A stretch of DNA of 64,000 nt from Vulcanimicrobiota bacterium (GTDB lineage Bacteria; Vulcanimicrobiota; Vulcanimicrobiia; Vulcanimicrobiales; Vulcanimicrobiaceae), in contig CAWHWQ010000001.1 of assembly GCA_963833095.1 (NCBI GenBank), positions 448,001-512,000 of the forward strand. The letters are read 5' to 3'. Under the pieces are notes generated by a model. The model saw nothing but the letters and a program-made list of their open reading frames with translations. It had not been told where the DNA came from and did no database searches. The position numbers and the translations under genes are program-made. Below are positions 5,555 through 52,211 of the stretch, piece by piece. Numbering within the stretch: the stretch's first letter is position 1; every line of letters begins with the position of its first letter.

Positions 5555-5910
5555 GGCCAGGGTTCGCGCTGCCTTACCAAACGGACTGACGGCGTCGCGC
5601 CGCCTAGTAAACCAGGTTTGGCGATCGAGACATCCGCGCACGCGATGCGGTCGTCGGCGGCCACCTCATCCAGAATCACGGCTGCCAACCGTTCGAGAAG
5701 CGCGTACGAATGCGTCTGGACGATCTCTACGACGCGCCGGTAAACGTCAGCATAGTCAAGCGTATCCGCCAGATCGTCACTTGCCGCGGCGCGCGAAAGG
5801 TCGAGCTGCAACACGAGATCGATTCGCAACGTCTGGGGCTGCTCGCGCTCCTGTGCGTAGGCTCCGTGCCGTCCCTGCGCGATGATGTCGTGAAGAACTA
5901 TCCGATCCAT
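5551..5910 (-). CDS. folB: Dihydroneopterin aldolase
   Basis: GRHGAYAQER, SDDLADTLDYA, LLERLA. Confidence 0.93.
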   Translation of the reverse strand: MDRIVLHDIIAQGRHGAYAQEREQPQTLRIDLVLQLDLSRAAASDDLADTLDYADVYRRVVEIVQTHSYALLERLAAVILDEVAADDRIACADVSIAKPGLLGGATPSVRLVRQREPWP

Positions 5911-43186: not shown

Positions 43187-43443
43187 GAGCCGCAGCCGAT
43201 TGCGGCGAGCTGCTCGGCAGCAATTCCCTCAACGTTGAAGCTCTTAAACGGACTGCGTCCGCCTTGAATCAACCGCACACGCGAGGGCGCAATGCGCAGC
43301 TCGAGCGCGATTGCCTTCACGCACGCGTCATTCGCGGCCCCCTCGATCGCTTTCTCGCGCACTTTGAGGACCAGCTCGTCGCCAATCCGCGAGAACCCGG
43401 GCTTCGGCGATCCCGGCTTCACGTGCACACGCAGGATGCCCAC
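43183..43443 (-). CDS. DUF167/YggU family protein
   Basis: VHVKPGS, EGAAN, GGRSPFK. Confidence 0.82.
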   Translation of the reverse strand: MGILRVHVKPGSPKPGFSRIGDELVLKVREKAIEGAANDACVKAIALELRIAPSRVRLIQGGRSPFKSFNVEGIAAEQLAAIGCGS

Positions 43444-43448
43444 CGGCG

Positions 43449-43838
43449 CTAGCGGCTGGCCAAACGCACGAGCGTAACGCCGGCAGCTGCGGCGAGGAAT
43501 CCGAAGCCGACCGATGACGCAAGATAGACAAGCGCCGGGAAAACGCCCTGTTCGAGCAACGTGAACGCTTCAAGCGAAAACGACGAAAAGGTCGTGTAAC
43601 CGCCGAGTACGCCGGTCGCGAGCAAAACACGAAGAAATGGGGTCATACCTAGCGCGCGCGTCGCAGCCAGCTGCGCGATGATGCCGATGCAGAAGCTTCC
43701 CGATACGTTGATGAAAAGCGTGCCGTAAGGAAAACCGGGTCCGAGGCGCTGCAGAAAAACTTGCCCGATGACGTAACGCAGCACGCCGCCGATCGCCGCG
43801 CCGACCGCGACCGCGACCACGGCACGCCACTCGATCAC
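43449..43838 (-). CDS. crcB: Fluoride channel Fluc
   Basis: GAAIGGVLRY, FPYGTLFINVSGSF, GVLGGYTTFSSF. Confidence 0.95.
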   Translation of the reverse strand: MIEWRAVVAVAVGAAIGGVLRYVIGQVFLQRLGPGFPYGTLFINVSGSFCIGIIAQLAATRALGMTPFLRVLLATGVLGGYTTFSSFSLEAFTLLEQGVFPALVYLASSVGFGFLAAAAGVTLVRLASR

Positions 43839-44173
43839 GTTTTGCCTCGCGAGATACGCATCAACTCGAGGTTCTCGAGCGTAATCAAACCCTCGCTCAC
43901 CATCGAACGCAGCGTCGGCAGAAAGGCCAGAATCTTCGCCTCTTCTTCGATCACCTCGATGAGGGTCGGCAGGTTCGTCGACTGATCGAAGTTGCGCGCC
44001 GCGTGCACGGTCTTGTGAACGCCGAAGCCTTCGATCCCTTTGAGCACCGTTGCTCCCGCAAATCCCGCCGCCTTGAGCGCTTCGACGAGCGCCATATAAA
44101 GCGGACGGCCATCGAAACGGTCGTCCTCGTCAACGAAGATGCGTAGGAGTTTTCCAGTCGTTCGGTCGGGCAC
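43835..44173 (-). CDS. DUF190 (PII-like fold) protein, copy 1
   Basis: LLRIFVDEDD, GATVLKGIEGFG, NLPTLIEV, EGLITLE; GTGA-coupled to crcB. Confidence 0.88.
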   Translation of the reverse strand: MPDRTTGKLLRIFVDEDDRFDGRPLYMALVEALKAAGFAGATVLKGIEGFGVHKTVHAARNFDQSTNLPTLIEVIEEEAKILAFLPTLRSMVSEGLITLENLELMRISRGKT

Positions 44174-44225
44174 GTTGGCCAATTCCCCCCGCAACCCGCG
44201 ATCGCCCGCAGGGAGGCTTTGCCTG

Positions 44226-44255
44226 TTGCCACGACGGCGCCTCTTCGCGTATAGT
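44226..44255 (+). promoter_or_regulatory. Sigma70-type promoter of the riboswitch leader
   Basis: TTGCCA-18 nt-TATAGT ending 11 nt before the aptamer. Confidence 0.7.
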
Positions 44256-44266
44256 AGTGGCAACTC

Positions 44267-44311
44267 AGCGATGAAGCTCGCTTAACGCCCTCCCGGGCTG
44301 ATGGCTTCTAC
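44267..44311 (+). ncRNA. Fluoride riboswitch (crcB motif) aptamer
   Basis: AGCG-ATG-AAGC-T-CGCT-TAAC-GCCC-TCCC-GGGC-TGATG-GCTTCTAC: P1 AGCG/CGCT, pseudoknot GAAGC/GCTTC, hairpin GCCC/GGGC, conserved GATG and TGATG..CTAC. Confidence 0.92.
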
Positions 44312-44346
44312 TCAAGACCGCCCGTACTTTGAGTGGAGCTTTTTTT
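44304..44346 (+). terminator. Riboswitch expression platform: intrinsic terminator that also occludes a GGAG SD
   Basis: GCTTCTACTCAA pairs with TTGAGTGGAGC (one bulge), followed by T7; the left arm is the aptamer 3' strand. Confidence 0.85.
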
Positions 44347-45295
44347 GTTACAAAGTATCGCGATCAATCTCTGCCAAGTCGCGTTTGTCTGTGGGCTCTC
44401 CCCGCTTGTGGCCGGCATTCTTGCCAAGCTCAAGGAGTTGACGCAGTCCAAGCGCGGGCCCAGTATTTGGCAGCCCTACCGCGACCTGCGCAAGCTCTTC
44501 CAAAAGGACGAGGTCATCTCGAACGAGAGCACGTGGATCTTCCGCGCAACACCGTTCGTCGTCTTCGTTGTCCCCCTCGCCGTCACTCTGCTGATTCCAG
44601 TACTCACGAACTTCCCGCTCTTCTTTGCCTTCGCCGGGGACATGCTCGCAGCGGGCTTCATTCTCGCCCTCTCGGGCTTTTTCTTGACGCTTGCCGCAAT
44701 CGATGCGGGCAACCCCTACGGGGTGATGGGTGCGAGCCGCACACGCATGGTTGGAGTGCTGGTCGAACCCGTGATCATCGTCGCACTTTTCACCGTCTCC
44801 TTCGTTGCGAACTCGACGATTCCGTACATCGTGCAACAGCATTGGGTGACTCCACCGTCCAACTTTTTTTCCGCATCGCACGTACTCGTGCTGATCGCGT
44901 TCTTCATGGTCATCCTAGCCGAAACCGGCCGCATTCCGGTCGATAACCCGAGCGGGCACTTCGAATTGGCGATGATCGATAAATCAAAGACGCTCGAGTT
45001 TTCCGGACCGTCGATGGCGTTGGTCAAGTGGGGCGGCTATATGAAATTTGTCGTCCTCTCGTGCGTATTGCTCAATGTCTTTCTCGCGCCGTGGGGCCTC
45101 TCGCCGTATCCATTACCACTCGCTATTGCGTCCGCCGCATTTTGGATATTCGTGAAGATCCTGGTTCTGATCGGCGTCGTCGTTTTCGTGGAATCGTCGT
45201 TTTCGAAACTTCGGCTCTTTCGCATCGCGGAATTCGTTGGATTCTCTTTCATTGCGTCGGTAACCGCAATGATCACGCAACTCTTACACCTGTGA
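44345..45295 (+). CDS. HyfC/HycD/NuoH-like membrane subunit (start TTG 44345 or GTG 44333)
   Basis: RGPSIWQPYRDLRKLFQK, AETGRIPVDNP, ELAMI, KLRLFR. Confidence 0.9.
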   Translation: MLQSIAINLCQVAFVCGLSPLVAGILAKLKELTQSKRGPSIWQPYRDLRKLFQKDEVISNESTWIFRATPFVVFVVPLAVTLLIPVLTNFPLFFAFAGDMLAAGFILALSGFFLTLAAIDAGNPYGVMGASRTRMVGVLVEPVIIVALFTVSFVANSTIPYIVQQHWVTPPSNFFSASHVLVLIAFFMVILAETGRIPVDNPSGHFELAMIDKSKTLEFSGPSMALVKWGGYMKFVVLSCVLLNVFLAPWGLSPYPLPLAIASAAFWIFVKILVLIGVVVFVESSFSKLRLFRIAEFVGFSFIASVTAMITQLLHL

Positions 45296-45314
45296 GCGCC
45301 GGAGAACACACGAC

Positions 45315-45980
45315 ATGACGACGTGGCTTTACGACCTCAACGCCTTGGTACTCGGATTATTTGTCCTCTGCGCGATCGGCATGGCGGTCATGCGTCAGGT
45401 CGGGGCCTGCTTACAGGTATTCGTAATCCAATCGCTGCTCTTGGCGGCCTCCGCCTTTCTTTTGGGCGGATCGCCGTGGTCATGGCATCTCTTTGCGCTC
45501 GGCTGCGTTACCATCGCGAGCAAAGCCGTACTGATTCCATGGATACTACGCGCGCTGGTGCCGGGCGAGGTCTACGCACGACGCGAACTTTCGCAGGCGA
45601 TCGGCGTTCCGGCAATTCTCTTGGCGACGCTGGCCCTCGTCCTCGCCGGATATGCGTTTGCCCGCCCACTCAATGCGGCGGCGCCAAGTCTCTCCGCTGC
45701 GAACGTTTCGCTGGGGGCTGCAGGCCTCTTTATCGCGCTCCTGTCGCTCGCGGTGCGCCGTGAAGCGGTTCCGCAAATTCTCGGAATCTTGGCGATGGAG
45801 AACGGCGCCTTTCTCGCCGGCATCGCGATTGCTCCGGACTTTCCGCTCATCGCCGAACTCGCGATCGCATTCGATGTTCCGCTGCTCGCGTTCATCGTGG
45901 CGTTGCTCACCCGCGCCGTCTACCATCACATCGGGTCAACCGAGATCGCCAAGCTCTCGACACTGCGGGAGGCCCCGTGA
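45315..45980 (+). CDS. HyfE-like membrane subunit
   Basis: FVIQSLLL, KAVLIPWIL, QILGILAMENG, ELAIAFD. Confidence 0.85.
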   Translation: MTTWLYDLNALVLGLFVLCAIGMAVMRQVGACLQVFVIQSLLLAASAFLLGGSPWSWHLFALGCVTIASKAVLIPWILRALVPGEVYARRELSQAIGVPAILLATLALVLAGYAFARPLNAAAPSLSAANVSLGAAGLFIALLSLAVRREAVPQILGILAMENGAFLAGIAIAPDFPLIAELAIAFDVPLLAFIVALLTRAVYHHIGSTEIAKLSTLREAP

Positions 45981-47404
45981 CCCTACTGCCCTTTGCTATC
46001 GCCGGGACGCCTCTTGCGGCCGCCGCACTTCTCGCGCTGCCGCGAAGCGAACGAATCGCCGGCGTCGTCACGGTGGTCGCGGCATCGCTTTCATTCGTGC
46101 TGGCCGTCACGCTTATTATCGGCGTGCGCTTGCACGGGCCGCTCATTGCAATCCCGCACTTCGTCGAGATCGACGGCTTCGGGGCCCTACTGGCGCTTTT
46201 GATCGCACTCGTTGCCACGACCGCGGCGCTCTTTTCCTACGGCTACATCAGGCACGAAGATCCGAATCCGCGACGCGTCAGGCTCTATTATGCGAATTTC
46301 AATCTCTTCGTCTTCTCTATGCTCACCATTCCGCTCACCGTCGAGCTCGGGATGGTGTGGATCTTCGTCGAGTTGACCACGCTGCTCTCGGTGATGCTCG
46401 TCAGCTATGAAAACACGCGCGCGGCACTCGAAGCGGCCTGGAAGTACATGGTGCTCACGCTGTTGGGTGCGACCGTTGCAGTACTCGGTGTTCTCGTTCT
46501 CTTTTGGGCGCTGCACCAGACCGGATCGACCGACTTCACCTGGAACGGCCTGCTCGCTCATGCGGCAGCGATGCCCCCGGCGCTGGTAAAAGGCGCCTTT
46601 GTTTTGCTCCTGATCGGTTACGGCGCAAAGATCGGCCTCGTTCCGTTGCACACGTGGCTACCTGACGCGCACAGCCAGGCGCCTTCGCCGGTGTGCGCGC
46701 TGCTTTCCGGCATTGAAACGACCGCCGTGCTCTACGTGCTCCTGCGGTTGCGCAACGTCTTTGCGCGTGTTCCTGGAACCCATGTGGGGACGTGGTTTGC
46801 GGTTTTCGGAGCGATCTCCGTCGTCGTGGCGGTGCTGTTAATCGTCCAGACGCGCGATTACAAGCGACTGTTCGCATTTTCGACGGTCGAACACATGGGG
46901 ATCATTCTGGCCGCGGCAAGCCTGGGGACGCCGCTTGGCGACGCCGCCGTCGTCTGGCAGATCGTCGCGCACGCCGTCACCAAATCATTCTCTTTCTACG
47001 CAGCCGGATCGACGCTTCTCGTTACCGGAACGCGGGCGATCGATGAGGTGAGTGGATTGCTCGGGCGCTCGCGTACTGCTGCCGCGGCGCTGATCGCCGG
47101 CGCGCTTGCGATCTCGGGTGCCCCGCCATTCGCGGTCTTCTTGAGTGAACTCGCCGTGCTGCGGGCCGGCATCGATGCGCATGCGTACCTTCTAACAGGA
47201 GTGCTGGCCGTGGCGATCGTGATTGGCTTCTGCGCAATGCTCTGGCACGTCACCGGAATGGTCAGCGGGGAATCGCGACCGAAAGCGCCGGAACAAGCAG
47301 CACTCCCGCGATCCTGTCGCGCGGCGCTGGCAATTGCAGCGGTTCCCATGCTGCTTTTAGGTCTATGGGTTCCGCTCTCGATCGGAACGTTATGGACGCC
47401 GTAA
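45977..47404 (+). CDS. HyfF-like antiporter-type (Mrp/NuoLMN) subunit
   Basis: WIFVELTT, LEAAWKY, GYGAKIGLVPLHTWLPDAHSQAPSPV, KRLFAFSTVEHMG. Confidence 0.9.
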   Translation: MTLLPFAIAGTPLAAAALLALPRSERIAGVVTVVAASLSFVLAVTLIIGVRLHGPLIAIPHFVEIDGFGALLALLIALVATTAALFSYGYIRHEDPNPRRVRLYYANFNLFVFSMLTIPLTVELGMVWIFVELTTLLSVMLVSYENTRAALEAAWKYMVLTLLGATVAVLGVLVLFWALHQTGSTDFTWNGLLAHAAAMPPALVKGAFVLLLIGYGAKIGLVPLHTWLPDAHSQAPSPVCALLSGIETTAVLYVLLRLRNVFARVPGTHVGTWFAVFGAISVVVAVLLIVQTRDYKRLFAFSTVEHMGIILAAASLGTPLGDAAVVWQIVAHAVTKSFSFYAAGSTLLVTGTRAIDEVSGLLGRSRTAAAALIAGALAISGAPPFAVFLSELAVLRAGIDAHAYLLTGVLAVAIVIGFCAMLWHVTGMVSGESRPKAPEQAALPRSCRAALAIAAVPMLLLGLWVPLSIGTLWTP

Positions 47405-48879
47405 TGGTGCCGGCCGAACACCTCGTGGCCGAGGTCGCACGATTACACGCGGAGCAAAAGCGTCTCGGGACGATTGTCGCAACCGAGGCAGCCGGCACGA
47501 TCGTGCTTCGCTATTTTTTCTACGACGTCGCTGCGCCCGACTGGGTGGAGCTTGTCGTCGAGGTGGATCCGGCGCAGCGCTGTGCTCCAAGCATTACCGG
47601 CATCACCATCGCGGCGGATTGGCAAGAGCGCGAGATTGAGGATCTGTTCGGTATCAGCTTCTCCGGCCATCCGCGGCTTGGCGACTTCGTATTACACGAC
47701 GACAAATGGGCCGAAGATCTCGGGCTCATGCGCCCACAGGTTCCCGATGAGGCCATCGCGCAGACGCGCCGGCACTGGGCGCCGCTGCGCGTCCTGCAGG
47801 AAGACGGCGCATTCGTCATGCCGGTTGGGCCGATTTACTCGGGCGATGCAGAGTCCTCGCTCTTCTTGCTCGAGACCGTTGGCGAAGACGTGGTGCGCGC
47901 GGTCCCGCGCCTCTTTTATAAGTTTCGTGCAATCGAGCGACTCGCCCAAGGGCGCAGCATGCAGGACGTGCTGCTGCTCGCCGAGCGATGCAACGGAACC
48001 GCCGCGTTCGGAAATGGGTGGGCCTATTGCCGCGCCGTAGAGTCCGCGCTGGGCGTCCACGTTCCGCCCGAAGCAATCGCATGGCGAACGTTCTTGGCGG
48101 AACTCGAGCGCGTCCGCCACCATGCCGGCGCGATTCGCGCGATCTGCGATTCGACCGCGCTCGGGGTTGCTGCGGCACAAGCCGCCGCATACGAAGAGCG
48201 GCTGCTCCGCGTGAGCGAAGGATTGACCGGGCATCGGTATCTCTTCGGTGCGCTGTGCATCGGCGGCATTTCCTTCACGCCGGAGCGGGCGGACGCCGAA
48301 CATGCGTACGAGTTGGTGCGCGCGCTGATCGATGAGCTGCAACCGTTCCGCGCGCTGCTCGAACGCACGAGCAGCTTTCTGGACCGTATCGAAGCTGTCG
48401 GTGTGATCGGCACGGCGCAGGCGCAGGCCTTCGAACTCGTCGGCCCGATCGCACGCGCAAGCGGTGTTGGGATCGACCTGCGCGTCGCGCAGTTCTACGG
48501 CGTCTACGATGCGCTGACGTTCGAGGTGCCTGTCGAGGAAGAGGGCGATGGGTTTGCGCGCCTGCGCGTGCTCTTCCGCGAAATTGGCGCGTCGGTGCAG
48601 CTGATGGCCCAGTCGTTGCGCCTCCTGAGCGGTGGACCAGTGCGCACGCAAGTTCAGACACGTGACGGGGCGGCGCTAGGATGGACGGAAACGCCGCAGG
48701 GCGCTTCGCTCTGTTGGGTCGCGCTGCGTCCCGACGGCCAGGTGACGCGCTTTCGCATTTCGCCGCCGTCGTTTTGTAATTGGCACGGTTTTCACATTGC
48801 TACCGAAGACTTCGCCTTCCAAGATCTCCCAATTATCCTGGCCACGATGGGCCTTTCGGTCGCTGAAAACGATCGATGA
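47392..48879 (+). CDS. HycE/HyfG-like (NuoC+D) large subunit without NiFe cysteine pairs (Ehr type); alternative start 47404
   Basis: ADWQEREIEDLFG (NuoC-like); L1 position reads ERCNGTAAFG and L2 reads MGLSVAENDR, with no CxxC. Confidence 0.88.
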   Translation: MDAVMVPAEHLVAEVARLHAEQKRLGTIVATEAAGTIVLRYFFYDVAAPDWVELVVEVDPAQRCAPSITGITIAADWQEREIEDLFGISFSGHPRLGDFVLHDDKWAEDLGLMRPQVPDEAIAQTRRHWAPLRVLQEDGAFVMPVGPIYSGDAESSLFLLETVGEDVVRAVPRLFYKFRAIERLAQGRSMQDVLLLAERCNGTAAFGNGWAYCRAVESALGVHVPPEAIAWRTFLAELERVRHHAGAIRAICDSTALGVAAAQAAAYEERLLRVSEGLTGHRYLFGALCIGGISFTPERADAEHAYELVRALIDELQPFRALLERTSSFLDRIEAVGVIGTAQAQAFELVGPIARASGVGIDLRVAQFYGVYDALTFEVPVEEEGDGFARLRVLFREIGASVQLMAQSLRLLSGGPVRTQVQTRDGAALGWTETPQGASLCWVALRPDGQVTRFRISPPSFCNWHGFHIATEDFAFQDLPIILATMGLSVAENDR

Positions 48880-48892
48880 AAGGAGCACGCAC

Positions 48893-49609
48893 ATGAGTTG
48901 GTTTTGGCGTGGGTTGATCGCGGGCACGCGAACCGAACGATATGACGAGTCAAAGCCTGCGCCGGTCGGCACGACGCCGGGGATGCCGGTAACGACGACG
49001 TTCGCGGATCCATCCGCGCCACGCGAACTCGCGACGCTCTGCCCCACCGGCGCGATCGAGGCGCAAGGCGAAACGGCACTCCTCGATCGCGATCGCTGCG
49101 TTCATTGTTTGCGATGCGCACCGAAACGCGGCTCGCAGGCGCTCACCTGGAACGACAGCTTCGCGTGGGCGCACGCGCCGGACGGGAACGCAGTGCGAGC
49201 GCTCCCGGCACGCTTTCGCCGCTCGATGCATGTGCGGGTTGTCGACGCAGGCGACTGCGGATCGTGCCTCAACGAAATAGTCCACCTCAACGACCCTTTC
49301 TATAACATGCACCGGTTTGGTTTTTTCATCACGCCGACGCCACGCCAAGCCGACGTTCTGCTGGTTGTCGGGCCGGTGACGCAACAGATGCGCGAAGCCT
49401 TGCTCACCGCCTATCAAGCAATGCCCGAGCCCAAACGCGTCGTGGCCGTGGGCGTGTGCGCCGTGAGCGGAGGCATATTTGGGCCCAGCGTGATGTGCGC
49501 GGCAGGAGCGGGCGACGTGCTCCCGGTCGACGTCGTGGTGCCGGGCTGCCCTCCTCCGCCTTTGGCTATTCTCAACGCGCTCATGGAGGTCTGCAACCGC
49601 AAGCCGTGA
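48893..49609 (+). CDS. Ferredoxin-like + HycG/NuoB-like small subunit fusion
   Basis: LCPTGAI...CVHCLRC; GDCGSC, GVCAVSGG, PGCPP; AGGAG SD. Confidence 0.88.
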   Translation: MSWFWRGLIAGTRTERYDESKPAPVGTTPGMPVTTTFADPSAPRELATLCPTGAIEAQGETALLDRDRCVHCLRCAPKRGSQALTWNDSFAWAHAPDGNAVRALPARFRRSMHVRVVDAGDCGSCLNEIVHLNDPFYNMHRFGFFITPTPRQADVLLVVGPVTQQMREALLTAYQAMPEPKRVVAVGVCAVSGGIFGPSVMCAAGAGDVLPVDVVVPGCPPPPLAILNALMEVCNRKP

Positions 49610-51738
49610 CGAATTTGCTGCTCGCCGCCTATGCGTCGACGTTTGCCCTTGCACTGCTGGGAGCAATTGCCGCGCTTGTATTTCCGTCGCGCGCGCGCAC
49701 CTTGCTCGCGTGGTTTTCGCTTGCGGCGTCGCTCGCGGCGCTCGCGGCGGGTACCGTCTCATTCTTCGTTCCCGATACCCATGTGGCGCTGTGGGCTCTG
49801 CCCGCGTACGGCCCGCTGTTGCTCAAGACCACGCCGCTGGGCGCGTTCTCGACTTGCATTGCCGCGTTGATCTACGTTCCGGTCTCGATCTACAGCGGCG
49901 CTTACCTTCGGCGCTACGAAGGCGCTTATTCGGTCGCCTCGTTTGCTCTGTGGTACTTCCTGCTCTTCGCGTCGGTCATCGCCGTCTTCGTCTGCGCCGA
50001 CGTCGTCTCGTTTTTCGTCGTCTGGGAAATCGCAGCGATTGCGAGCGCAGCGCTGGTTGCCTTCGAGTGGCGCGACCGCTTGTGCACGCGCGCGGCCTAT
50101 CTCATGCTGGCCATGACGGAGGCCGGTACGGCGACAGCAATCCTCGCGATGTTGATCGTCTTCGCCGGCTCGGGCTCCTATGCGTTTGCACCGGGCGCAG
50201 GCGCGCATCTGCCGCCGCAGCTCGGATGGTCCGCTGCTTTACTTGCGCTCTTCGGTTTTGGCGTGAAGGCTGGGCTTGCGCCGGTGAACTCGTGGCTGCC
50301 GCGCGCCTACCCCGTCGCGCCCGCCAACGTCTCGACGATCCTTTCCGCGATCGTCGTAAATCTCGGTGTGTACGGCATCCTGCTCGTGAACGTCGAATTT
50401 GCGCCGCTGCATTCCCTCGCGTTCGGCGCCCTGATGCTTGCAATCGGCGCCGTTTCAGCTCTCCTCGGCATCCTGTATGCCTCGGTAAGCGATGACGCAA
50501 AAGCAGTCCTGGCCTACAGTTCGATCGAGAATCTGGGAATCGTCGTCGCGGGCATGGGCGCGGGCCTCGTCTTTCTCGACGCAGGGAAGCCCGCCTTCGC
50601 GGCGCTCGGATTTGCCGCTGCACTCTACCACCTGCTAAATCATTCCACGTACAAGGCGTTGTTGTTTCTCGGAATCGGCGTCGTCGATATGCACGCTGGG
50701 ACCCGGAGCATCGATCGTATGGGCGGATTGATCCGGTTGCTGCCCGCGACGGCAGCGTGCGTATTGATCGGTTGTCTTGCGATCTCGGCGATCCCGCCGC
50801 TCAATGGATTTACGAGCGAATGGCTCACACTGCAGTCGCTGCTGCGCAGTTCGGAACTGGCGTCCATTGGGATGCGCGTGACCTTCGCACTCTCCGGCGC
50901 CGTTCTTGCGCTCACCGCAGCACTGGCGATCACCACCTTCGTCAAGATGTTCGGCATGATCTTCCTCGGCGTCGCACGCACGAATTGGGCCGATCGACCG
51001 ATCACCGAAGCTCCCCTTGCGATGCGCGCGGCAATGTATCTCCTGGCCGCCGCGTGCGTGCTACTCGGCATCGGACCGACGTATGTGCTCGGTGTCGTGG
51101 ATCGCGCCTTGCGCGACCTGTCCGGATCGATCGCGTCCTACACGCTCGTTCCGGGATTCCTCTCTCCGTATCCTGGACGGGCACCATTGCCCGCCGGCTT
51201 CGTTGCAACGTTCCACGCATTGGGTGCACAAGTCGGCATGCATGTGGTTCCCGGTCACGGCTTGGTCGTGATGCTGCGCGGCGGCAGCGCAAACCCGGTG
51301 GTGTTTGCGATGTCCACCACCTATCTGTGTCTCATTTTATTCGTACTGTTCACGGCGACATACGCGGGCGTACGTCTGGCTGCGCGCGGTCGCCTCGTGC
51401 AACGTGCGCTCGCGTGGGCAGGCGGACTGCGCGTATTGGCCCCGAGCATGACCTACACGGGTACGGGGTTCTCGAATCCGATCCGCGTGATCTTCGAAGC
51501 GGTGTTCCAACCGGCAACGAACGACGAGCGCGAGACCGTCCAGGAGCATTTTCGTACCGCGATACGGCGCGAACGCCGGAACGACTACATCGGCGACCGG
51601 CTCGTGATAGTACCTGCTACGCGCGCGGTACAGTGGTCTGCGCGCCTGCTCGCCCGCATGCATCACGGCCACCTCGACGCCTACGTGCTCTATGCGCTGT
51701 TCACGCTACTGCTTGCGCTCGGAATCATGTTCGGCTAA
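49606..51738 (+). CDS. HyfB-like antiporter-type subunit
   Basis: FFVVWEI, GFGVKAGLAPVNSWLPRAYP, LAYSSIEN, NHSTYKALLF, PPLNGFTSEW; GTGA overlap. Confidence 0.9.
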   Translation: MTNLLLAAYASTFALALLGAIAALVFPSRARTLLAWFSLAASLAALAAGTVSFFVPDTHVALWALPAYGPLLLKTTPLGAFSTCIAALIYVPVSIYSGAYLRRYEGAYSVASFALWYFLLFASVIAVFVCADVVSFFVVWEIAAIASAALVAFEWRDRLCTRAAYLMLAMTEAGTATAILAMLIVFAGSGSYAFAPGAGAHLPPQLGWSAALLALFGFGVKAGLAPVNSWLPRAYPVAPANVSTILSAIVVNLGVYGILLVNVEFAPLHSLAFGALMLAIGAVSALLGILYASVSDDAKAVLAYSSIENLGIVVAGMGAGLVFLDAGKPAFAALGFAAALYHLLNHSTYKALLFLGIGVVDMHAGTRSIDRMGGLIRLLPATAACVLIGCLAISAIPPLNGFTSEWLTLQSLLRSSELASIGMRVTFALSGAVLALTAALAITTFVKMFGMIFLGVARTNWADRPITEAPLAMRAAMYLLAAACVLLGIGPTYVLGVVDRALRDLSGSIASYTLVPGFLSPYPGRAPLPAGFVATFHALGAQVGMHVVPGHGLVVMLRGGSANPVVFAMSTTYLCLILFVLFTATYAGVRLAARGRLVQRALAWAGGLRVLAPSMTYTGTGFSNPIRVIFEAVFQPATNDERETVQEHFRTAIRRERRNDYIGDRLVIVPATRAVQWSARLLARMHHGHLDAYVLYALFTLLLALGIMFG

Positions 51739-52091
51739 GCGTGCGTCGACGTAGGTCTGGAAAGGCGCAGGTATTGCGCCGCTTCAACCGTGAGCAAGCC
51801 CTCGCCCATCATCGTCTCGAGTTCGCCGATCAGCGGCTCGAGTACCGACCAGTCATCCACGACTTCGATGAGGATCGGAAGGTTCGGCAGCCACGAAAAA
51901 ACTTTGGCCATGTGCACTTGGCCATGCCCACCGAAGCCTTCGATCCCGCGAAAGACCGTGGCGCCCGCGACACCGCGCTTGCGCAAGAATTCGACGATCG
52001 CCGTGTAGGTGGGCTGCACGCCGCGCCGATCCGCTTCGTCGACGAAGATCCGCAGCAATTTGCCGTCCCGAAAGCCCTGGGCGCTTTGCAT
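51735..52091 (-). CDS. DUF190 (PII-like fold) protein, copy 2
   Basis: LLRIFVDEAD, GATVFRGIEGFG, NLPILIEVVD; GGAGG SD. Confidence 0.88.
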   Translation of the reverse strand: MQSAQGFRDGKLLRIFVDEADRRGVQPTYTAIVEFLRKRGVAGATVFRGIEGFGGHGQVHMAKVFSWLPNLPILIEVVDDWSVLEPLIGELETMMGEGLLTVEAAQYLRLSRPTSTHA

Positions 52092-52124: not shown

Positions 52125-52211
52125 AGGAGAGGGAGAGATTCGAACTCTCGGAACGCTTTCGCGTCCTGCGGTTTTCAAGACCGCTGCATTAAACCACTCT
52201 GCCACCTCTCC
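52125..52211 (-). tRNA. tRNA-Ser(TGA), CCA not encoded
   Basis: GGAGAGG/CCTCTCC acceptor, GCGGT-CTTGAAA-ACCGC anticodon arm, long variable arm, GAGAG-TTCGAAT-CTCTC. Confidence 0.96.

Follow-up and report, generated by a model that had tools for sequence, protein, structure and literature searches.

A predicted fluoride-response module whose only riboswitch precedes the genes of a six-subunit Ehr complex and not the fluoride channel gene

Background

Why would a bacterium place its only recognizable fluoride riboswitch in front of hydrogenase-like membrane genes, and not in front of the fluoride channel gene that lies beside them? This question is raised by a locus in the genome of a Vulcanimicrobiota bacterium (assembly GCA_963833095.1; 2.8 Mb, 80.7% complete). 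We analyzed a stretch of 64,000 nucleotides (nt) of this genome (contig CAWHWQ010000001.1, positions 448,001-512,000, forward strand), which is referred to here as the window and whose own positions are used throughout. Genes were called from Pfam and NCBIfam profile searches, and residue numbers follow the numbering of the open reading frames (ORFs). As predicted from these searches, the locus is a fluoride-response module in which the only riboswitch controls a six-subunit complex of the Ehr family, and not the channel gene.

According to the available part of a 2024 review (PMC11139923), the entry of hydrogen fluoride (HF) and the accumulation of fluoride lower cytoplasmic pH and the proton-motive force, export through Fluc channels depends on the electrical gradient, and metabolic shifts occur under fluoride. 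The same text counts 'formate hydrogen lyase' genes among the commonest genes linked to the riboswitch, which it explains by formate oxidation in fermentation, and Na+/H+ antiporters as the next most common. An earlier, sequence-only reading of this DNA stated that such annotations had already been associated with the riboswitch, and the available part of Weinberg 2010 (PMC2864571) indeed names 'genes encoding formate hydrogen lyase' among those that follow the crcB motif, and describes a terminator that overlaps the aptamer of this motif. The link of the RNA to these genes has therefore been in print since 2010, and the window locus adds one more case to an association that is known but mislabelled. 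Baker et al. in 2012 reportedly placed 'formate hydrogen lyase' genes downstream of the fluoride riboswitch as well.

Ehr complexes, which are related to complex I and to energy-converting hydrogenases, are widespread and are not known to have a function. In the available text of PMC6349859 they are defined as relatives of group 4 hydrogenases without the Ni/Fe-coordinating residues. The subunits of the Geobacter sulfurreducens complex, EhrA-S (GSU0739-45), are listed in PMC7894505, which states, in its available part, that the role of Ehr has never been investigated; the corresponding part of PMC6349859 offers a guess at a formate link only. Searches of open-access articles and bioRxiv found no publication that names the riboswitch-linked genes Ehr or notes their lost cysteines (the supplements of Baker 2012 may do so). 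The same sources gave no relevant paper for fluoride and Ehr, for the fluoride riboswitch and hydrogenase (the latter judged by titles and abstracts), or for DUF190 and fluoride (judged by the search listing).

Results

The fluoride riboswitch and the operon behind it

The Rfam model of the fluoride riboswitch (crcB motif, RF01734) matches positions 44258-44317 (+) with 36.1 bits, above the gathering score of 34 (E 2.5e-6). This is its sole match in the window and in the genome, and it lies in the leader of the operon; crcB is not preceded by an aptamer. The score is modest because the pseudoknot departs from the consensus, which it does by compensatory changes. When 19 aptamers were aligned with MAFFT, every one of them could form all five pairs of the pseudoknot; two of these pairs covary (G-C/A-U and U-A/C-G), and the window has the rarer form of both, A-U and C-G. 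When 112 aptamers were aligned, by fitting them to the covariance model itself, 96.8% of the cells were paired versus 81.9% in shuffles, and none of 500 shuffles reached as high a value. All eight pairs show compensatory change in this alignment, and the score collapses when the partners are slid. With covariation in P1, P3 and the pseudoknot, the window aptamer is classed on comparative grounds as a genuine member of the fluoride-riboswitch family.

The aptamer begins 2 nt after a candidate sigma-70-like promoter, TTGCCA-18-TATAGT (44226-44255, +). A promoter scan gave one match in the region where 1.8 were expected by chance; since this count is not above chance, the promoter is called from its position. 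The aptamer runs into an expression platform (44303-44346, +) that consists of a hairpin of 13 pairs at about 44303-44340, with a folding energy of -12.1 kcal/mol, and a run of seven T residues at 44340-44346 (U7 in the RNA). The 5' strand of the hairpin is the 3' end of the aptamer, which can pair instead with 44327-44340, and the sequence places a Shine-Dalgarno motif, GGAG (44335-44338), inside the 3' strand. The terminator scan missed this hairpin because its loop exceeds 8 nt, and the fold energy of the whole leader is unexceptional (z -1.87). Since the hairpin competes with the 3' end of the aptamer and hides the Shine-Dalgarno motif, fluoride binding should permit both read-through and translation, i.e., the leader is predicted to be an ON switch whose platform could gate transcription and translation together. 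Where more than 110 nt separate the aptamer from HyfC, as in 37 leaders, no small conserved ORF was found in the gap.

Six genes follow on the same strand. The first encodes a HyfC/NuoH-like membrane subunit of 316 amino acids (44345-45295, +; Pfam NADHdh, 129.6 bits). Its likely start is the TTG at 44345, at the end of the T-run, and its homologues are likewise 316 amino acids long and align from ORF residue 5-8. The second gene product is a HyfE-like membrane subunit of 221 amino acids (45315-45980, +), which the NCBIfam HyfE model matches end to end; the C-terminal half resembles NuoK and MrpC, carries two conserved Glu residues and weakly matches MbhG of 6CFW (E 0.1). A HyfF/NuoN-like antiporter-type subunit (45977-47404, +; Pfam Proton_antipo_M, 159.6 bits) is followed by the large subunit, a NuoC-NuoD/HycE-like fusion (47365-48879, +; Pfam Complex1_30kDa and Complex1_49kDa). 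The small subunit (48893-49609, +) combines an N-terminal single-cluster ferredoxin-like domain (Fer4) with a NuoB/HycG-like domain (Oxidored_q6, 94 bits) that aligns with HycG and MbhJ, and the last gene encodes a HyfB/HycC/MrpA-like antiporter-type subunit (49606-51738, +; Pfam Proton_antipo_M, with alignments to HycC (7Z0S_C) and MrpA (7QRU_A)). All six genes are packed, with overlaps or with gaps of at most 19 nt; for example, the GTG start of HyfB overlaps the stop codon of the small-subunit gene (GTGA).

The sequence-only reading had described a promoter, a complete fluoride aptamer and a terminator leading directly into six genes of these identities, with no aptamer in front of crcB. 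The Rfam match, the hairpin with its T-run, and the Pfam and NCBIfam assignments bear out this description, in which the promoter is supported by its position.

A large subunit without the Ni-Fe site

Relatives of the complex were collected with an alignment of 17 large subunits as the query. The best 80 of 220 confirmed matches in genomes of GTDB species were kept as survey loci (labelled with L and a number), which yields 81 large subunits including that of the window.

In an alignment with E. coli HycE (7Z0S chain E, E 2.2e-48), the large subunit of the window has ERCNGTAAFGNG where HycE has DRVCGICGFAHS, and its C-terminus is LSVAENDR. The residues at the places of the four Cys ligands of the Ni-Fe site are N, A, S and E. 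None of the 81 large subunits has all four Cys: two of the columns hold A/S/N and S/T/A, with two Cys each, and the other two hold S (80/81) and E (81/81). This agrees with the earlier description of the complex as NiFe-less. The pocket that replaces the ligands is strongly conserved (S498 in 80, E501 in 81 and an H at 217 in 73 of the 81 sequences), and more than 50 residues of the subunit are kept in at least 77 of the 81. E207 and R208 also belong to the former Ni-Fe pocket.

The surrounding genome was also searched for hydrogenase functions. The window large subunit itself, below the cut-off, is the lone match to NiFeSe_Hases in the genome, and HypD had no match there; the missing HypD is weak taken alone, because the genome is 80.7% complete. 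The NCBIfam models of Hyf, Hyc and Nuo proteins all score under their curated cut-offs (HyfB 501 versus 667, HyfF 322 versus 543, HyfE 55 versus 136 bits). No formate dehydrogenase gene lies in the window flanks, and neither a formate dehydrogenase nor a NuoEFG-type gene is the first ORF after any of 111 aptamers of the survey or the first after HyfB in the 61 of 61 loci where it could be called. Of these 61 ORFs, 56 were scanned separately and the other five belong to the post-aptamer set. Judged by its residues, the complex cannot be a [NiFe] hydrogenase, and by the definition given in the available text of PMC6349859, i.e., group 4 hydrogenase homologues without Ni/Fe-coordinating residues, the six predicted subunits constitute an Ehr.

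Iron-sulfur sites and the ion path

The N-terminus of the small subunit is matched by Fer4 with 21.1 bits in the window and by Fer4_Nqo3 with 33 bits in L008. Within its ferredoxin-like motif, CP...CxxCxxC, Cys 82, 101 and 107 are present in 75 of 75 small subunits and Cys 104 in 74. Three ligands of the NuoB/MbhJ-type cluster, Cys 154, 157 and 221, are likewise kept in all 75. The fourth ligand lies in the motif PGCPP at residue 251 (49547-49549) and varies: it is Cys in 32 sequences, N in 27, Q in 6, H in 3 and other residues in the remainder.

Judged by its residues, the ion path of the membrane subunits is intact. E191, K271, H396, K400 and E455 of HyfB each occur in 62 or all of the 63 sequences, and when the subunit is aligned to HycC and MrpA the W-E of transmembrane helix (TM) 5, the K of TM7, the H/H/K of TM8 and the E of TM12 are all retained. 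HyfF has K218, H332, K336 and E391 in 70 of 70 sequences and its TM5 Glu, E132, in 65; HyfE has E162 and E181 in 72 of 72. In HyfC, 31 charged or aromatic residues are each present in 65 or more of the 68 sequences, and many of the acidic ones in all 68. Pfam and NCBIfam scans of the window proteins gave none of the MrpB, E, F and G families. The complex is thus predicted to keep two Fe-S sites, a NuoH/NuoK set of the E-channel type, and two antiporter-type subunits with the canonical Glu and Lys residues.

Conservation of the pairing among relatives

The 80 survey loci, all of them from metagenome-assembled genomes or assemblies of uncultured bacteria, span Eremiobacterota, Acidobacteriota, Verrucomicrobiota, Planctomycetota, Nitrospirae and Alpha-, Beta-, Gamma- and Deltaproteobacteria. 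Several of the assemblies have bog, palsa or SPRUCE in their names. When 1.39 Mb were scanned with a covariance model built from 19 aptamers found with nhmmer, 133 matches had E<=1; at E<=1e-3 there were 111 in the loci (1.33 Mb), and exactly one match falls in the window.

A HyfC start is present in 70 of the 80 loci, and 67 of these are testable, with at least 350 nt upstream. An aptamer on the same strand lies within 450 nt upstream of HyfC in 48 of the 67 at E<=1e-3 and in 53 at E<=1. Among the remaining testable loci, L055 has the order aptamer-dynamin-Ehr. In L034 a single aptamer heads crcB, DUF190 and Ehr in one string. Nine loci, mostly from Gammaproteobacteria and Burkholderiales, have no aptamer whatever. 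The curated Rfam threshold recovers 10 of 11 model matches in eight loci outside model building, and the operon leaders in 8 of 8. By these counts, the pairing of aptamer and operon is conserved across phyla and over deep divergence.

The sequence-only reading had placed the riboswitch, Ehr, crcB and DUF190 in one module and proposed a survey of their co-occurrence. The survey is positive for the first pair (48/67, with 0/6 in the HyfB-first clade described below). The other two partners are often absent from the vicinity: among the 80 loci, 18 have crcB and 23 have DUF190 within 10 kb. Adjacency to crcB or DUF190 is not general among the relatives. DUF190 directly flanks the operon in ten loci, six of which have no crcB in view.

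Several leaders deviate in structure. In two loci (L008:5950-6108 and L010:4505-4684) a short ORF lies between the aptamer and HyfC, and its end (…GGLVTLEKVRIIDYRADE…) resembles the C-terminus of DUF190. This ORF is probably a decayed DUF190 gene, which hints at an ancestral order aptamer-(crcB)-DUF190-Ehr that is still present in L034 and L024. Longer aptamers of 80-100 nt with an extra hairpin between P1 and P3 occur at L008:5869-5957, L011:6476-6565, L065:6540-6639, L079:6403-6502 and L004:16251-16339; the acidobacterial long aptamers have GGCAAAGGAG in place of the consensus GGCGAUGGAG. In L004, a second Cys-less paralogue is preceded by a variant aptamer of 23.6 bits, under the Rfam gathering score. 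In L067, the Rfam model of group II intron domains D1-D4 matches a segment upstream of the Ehr operon (2060-2145; 36.6 bits versus 32).

Subtypes and other Ehr clades

The frequency of the aptamer differs with the residue at the fourth ligand of the NuoB-type cluster. The subtype with Cys at this place, as in the window (31 loci), has the aptamer in 26 of 27 testable loci and a second HyfB in 1 of 31. The subtype with another residue (43 loci) has it in 17 of 35 testable loci, and a second HyfB in 13 of 43.

A more distant Ehr clade, also Cys-less, has the gene order HyfB-HyfC-HyfE-HyfF-large-small. Its six loci (L088, L089 and L091-L094; L088-L095 label plasmid loci of cultured bacteria) are on plasmids of Azospirillum, Methylovirgula, Paraburkholderia, Rhizobium, Rhodococcus and Allomeiothermus. 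No aptamer was detected in these six with our own model (E<=0.1) or in the two scanned with Rfam, and tblastn found neither crcB nor DUF190 in the six. The large subunit of this HyfB-first clade ends in NKSFN(C/L)SY(A/S)G(H/N/C)DL, and in L089 and L092 the gene of a small helix-turn-helix regulator lies ahead of the operon.

A sister clade that is HyfC-first like the window (31% identity in the large subunit) occurs on plasmids of Burkholderia multivorans (L090) and Caballeronia sp. SBC2 (L095). Its directly upstream aptamers are of Rfam grade (54.9 and 50.7 bits), with three and two more nearby; the operon aptamer of L095 is at 5572-5642. In L090 four aptamers head DUF190/Ehr, a pyrophosphatase, a dynamin and a hypothetical gene, and cfa and an MFS gene are adjacent; plasmids of B. 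cenocepacia encode an 88%-identical large subunit. As far as these clades were scanned, the riboswitch link is not common to all types of Ehr.

Fluoride islands around the operons

Many of the survey loci are "fluoride islands": at least one aptamer is present in 61 of 80 loci and at least two in 30, with several units within 20 kb. At E<=1e-3, L038 and L066 have five aptamers each, and L021, L048, L056 and L069 four each. The first genes after the 111 aptamers encode NuoH-like proteins (47), MutS-V proteins (11), dynamins (7), enolases (4), NUDIX proteins (3) and AAA_16 ATPases (3). Two each encode a Na+/H+ exchanger, an MFS protein, a Metallophos protein, a CFA synthase and DUF190, and one each CrcB, a pyrophosphatase, FlK, Usp, PPDK, YkoP, a HEAT protein and a second antiporter-like protein. 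Eighteen of the 111 post-aptamer ORFs have no Pfam family; two of these are frames mis-picked at HyfC leaders, which leaves 16. By their family assignments, the genes after the aptamers that do not serve Ehr are the classical fluoride regulon. The riboswitch-led Na+/H+ exchangers are in L039 and L056.

Some further features of these islands were noted. Riboswitch-led units include MutS-V-only proteins and a gene resembling that of fluoroacetyl-CoA thioesterase (L047:1010-1435). Near crcB in Acidobacteriaceae there are three tandem, divergent DUF190 genes (L065:18077-19188, L066:19176-20308, L069:16158-17245 and L079:18329-19458), which suggests a heterotrimeric PII-like protein. A gene for an AAA_16 ATPase of about 250 amino acids is divergent from Ehr in three gammaproteobacterial loci without the riboswitch (L035:5694-6467, L040:5592-6368 and L045:5648-6397), and the same family is riboswitch-led in the Verrucomicrobia loci L008, L010 and L023.

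Channel and DUF190 genes beside the operon

The operon of the window is flanked on both sides by other genes of the module. On its left, divergent from the riboswitch promoter, is a pair formed by DUF190a, a PII-like protein of 112 amino acids (43835-44173, -; Pfam DUF190, 115.4 bits, cut-off 23.4, with a weak P-II match), and crcB, which encodes a Fluc fluoride channel of 129 amino acids (43449-43838, -; Pfam CRCB, 90.8 bits, cut-off 32.9; TIGR00494, 85.2 versus 80.45). The start of DUF190a is probably the GTG at 44173, as the homologue alignments open at ORF residue 33-38. The DUF190a stop and the crcB start share 4 nt, and the pair is translationally coupled. On the right lies DUF190b, a PII-like protein of 118 amino acids (51735-52091, -; Pfam DUF190, 100.1 bits, cut-off 23.4), which is convergent with the operon. 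These coordinates confirm the arrangement given in the sequence-only reading, in which DUF190-crcB diverges from the operon at its left and another DUF190 converges on it from the right.

The single crcB copy of the genome and both of its DUF190 copies are thus in the module, the latter flanking the operon, and the two PII-like proteins are probably regulators within it. The DUF190b stop (51735-51737, -) overlaps the HyfB stop (TAA, 51736-51738) by 2 nt; therefore, fluoride-induced read-out of the operon would run antisense through DUF190b. An orthologue of DUF190b that is 88% identical occupies the same position in L005. A tRNA-Ser(UGA) gene (52125-52211, -) ends 33 nt ahead of the DUF190b start.

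Prediction of a complex of two CrcB copies with DUF190a, with alignments as input, scored far below the mark, and nothing is drawn from it. Among public sequencing runs that share 43400-47400, no RNA run was listed, so nothing is drawn on expression; four DNA runs hold at least half of the words of this segment and the others small shares, and nothing is drawn on habitat.

Discussion

What might a fluoride-induced Ehr do? HF that enters at low pH, together with the electrogenic exit of F- through Fluc, would in effect let protons leak in, so that the cytoplasm turns acidic and the membrane potential falls. A low-potential donor such as ferredoxin may feed electrons into the complex via the ferredoxin-like domain and the NuoB-type cluster, and the energy of these electrons would be used to expel H+ (or Na+). 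As an additional pump that fluoride switches on, the complex would make up for the leak. We give about even chances to this reading, a fluoride-induced, redox-driven cation pump that compensates for HF entry and F- exit. The sequence-only reading had proposed a redox-driven ion pump that restores the membrane potential or pH, or that exports F- itself. The former proposal is plausible and partly supported, as it would fit the conserved Glu and Lys residues, the Fe-S ligands and the company of riboswitch-led stress genes; nothing in the analysis supports the latter. A wider form of the reading is held more tentatively: the whole HyfC-first branch, from Eremiobacterota to Burkholderia, may possibly be a dedicated, ferredoxin-driven H+ (or Na+) pump of fluoride stress with DUF190 regulators.

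Several observations weigh against a redox-driven pump under fluoride control. In 43 of 75 small subunits, another residue (N, Q, H, D, E, S, A or F) takes the place of the fourth Cys of the NuoB-type cluster, which the window retains, so that the redox chemistry may be altered or dispensable. The His and Tyr of the quinone site of complex I are absent (alignment to 7Q5Y_B), and no module for an electron donor or acceptor is encoded by the first ORF after the 111 aptamers or after HyfB in 61 of 61 loci. The TM5 Glu of HyfF is lost in 5 of 70 sequences. Nineteen of 67 testable operons have no directly upstream aptamer at E<=1e-3, and a hairpin followed by U5 comes after the aptamer in just 17 of 50 leaders in a crude test, for which reason no transcriptional mechanism is claimed for the whole family.

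Some of these points lead to the main rival, which we regard as unlikely: a secondary, Mrp-like cation/proton antiporter that needs no electron transfer, serves fluoride-induced pH homeostasis, and has a peripheral arm that is structural or a sensor of redox state or a ligand. The alignment of HyfB with MrpA, with its residues of TM5, TM7 and TM8 kept, is what such an antiporter would be expected to show, as are the lost fourth Cys, the absent quinone-site residues and the lack of donor or acceptor genes at the flank positions examined. Na+/H+ exchangers are moreover under the same riboswitch in L039 and L056, and the available text of PMC11139923 ranks them second. However, each of seven Fe-S Cys is present in 74 or all of the 75 small subunits across phyla. 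More than 50 positions of the large subunit are conserved in 77 or more of the 81 sequences, which argues for a working catalytic or redox arm, and MrpB, E, F and G were not seen with Pfam or NCBIfam. The complex might instead be an alternative respiratory entry, e.g., a ferredoxin:quinone oxidoreductase that, instead of repairing pH or membrane potential, re-routes metabolism as fluoride blocks enolase and drains the tricarboxylic acid cycle and NADH. Enolase and pyrophosphatase genes are indeed under the same riboswitch in survey loci, metabolic shifts under fluoride are described in the available part of PMC11139923, and the genome encodes its sole NuoF in a separate complex about 41 kb outside the window, which would make Ehr accessory. 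This we consider improbable, as the quinone-binding His and Tyr of NuoD are absent and the loci point to no particular donor; it also overlaps the reading as a redox-driven pump, since such an enzyme would pump as well.

Two further readings have a smaller share. The complex could act on fluoride itself, either by exporting F- or by binding it in the Ser/Glu/His pocket or at the three-Cys cluster and so gating the machine; the near-invariant S498 and E501, the frequent H at 217, and the fourth cluster position left open in 43 of 75 sequences are compatible with this idea. It is nevertheless very improbable: in this superfamily, antiporter-type subunits transport cations, genes for exporters dedicated to F- are present beside the operon or elsewhere in the genome, and no anion-binding motif was identified. 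Least credible of all is the database label, a formate hydrogenlyase or hydrogenase-4 making H2 from formate. It has in its favor the source names, such as 'formate hydrogenlyase subunit 5', the account of the riboswitch-linked genes in the available text of PMC11139923, and the HyfB, HyfE and HyfF models as the best NCBIfam matches. Every one of these matches is below its curated cut-off, though, HypD is missing from the 80.7%-complete genome, and no formate dehydrogenase was found at the flank positions examined. Together with the Ni-Fe cysteines, complete in 0 of 81 large subunits, these results refute a formate hydrogenlyase identity at the sequence level.

If the genes do encode nickel-free, ion-translocating complexes, the fluoride regulon would contain an energy-coupled system that repairs pH or membrane potential, and the Ehr family would gain a cheap inducer (NaF) and a testable phenotype. 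This orphan family would thereby acquire a testable role in fluoride tolerance. Should the reading of the HyfC-first branch be true, it would give an Ehr complex a physiological function for the first time and add a new, energy-coupled layer to fluoride resistance. Cultured soil bacteria that carry the sister clade exist (Caballeronia sp. SBC1 and SBC2), so that the function is directly testable.

Comparison with known systems

The pairing published for 'formate hydrogen lyase' genes involves, in the available text, the same RNA and the same kind of operon behind it, and the terminator overlaps the aptamer, as in the window. It was taken there at annotation value, whereas the window and its 80 relatives have neither the Ni-Fe ligands nor an accompanying formate dehydrogenase. 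The Ehr of Geobacter, whose set of NuoL-like, HyfE-like, large and small subunits corresponds to that of the window complex, also resembles it in being group 4-related, with Mrp-type subunits, and devoid of the Ni/Fe residues. In their available parts, the papers on it (PMC7894505 and PMC6349859) do not mention fluoride and suggest a link to formate dehydrogenase.

Among solved structures, the best relative is E. coli Hyc (7Z0S), with E values of 2.2e-48 for the large subunit, 3.1e-29 for the small subunit and 1.5e-51 for HyfB; HycC and the window HyfB share the Glu of TM12. Unlike Hyc and hydrogenase-4 (Hyf), the window complex has no Ni-Fe cysteines and no FdhF partner, and in place of a two-cluster subunit of the HycF type it has a one-cluster ferredoxin-like domain fused to the small subunit. 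The small subunit shares the MbhJ-type CxxC...C...C motif with MBH and MBS of Pyrococcus (6CFW, 6U8Y), and MrpA of the Mrp antiporters (7QRU, 6Z16) aligns with HyfB over the motifs of TM5, TM7 and TM8. The membrane arm of the window complex is, however, far simpler than those of MBH, MBS and Mrp, with four subunits and no MrpB, E, F or G. As to membership of the Mrp group itself, HyfB and HyfF have the TM5 Glu, TM7 Lys and TM8 Lys, but the window does not encode a full MrpA-G set free of an Fe-S arm.

Complex I differs from the window operon in having NuoEFG, NuoI, NuoA and NuoJ, and its HPxxHG and DRMDY motifs correspond to YSGDAE and ERCNG in the window large subunit. The two nevertheless share homologues of NuoH, NuoCD and NuoB, as well as NuoK-like and NuoN/L-like subunits, and the Glu and Lys residues of the proton path are conserved between them.

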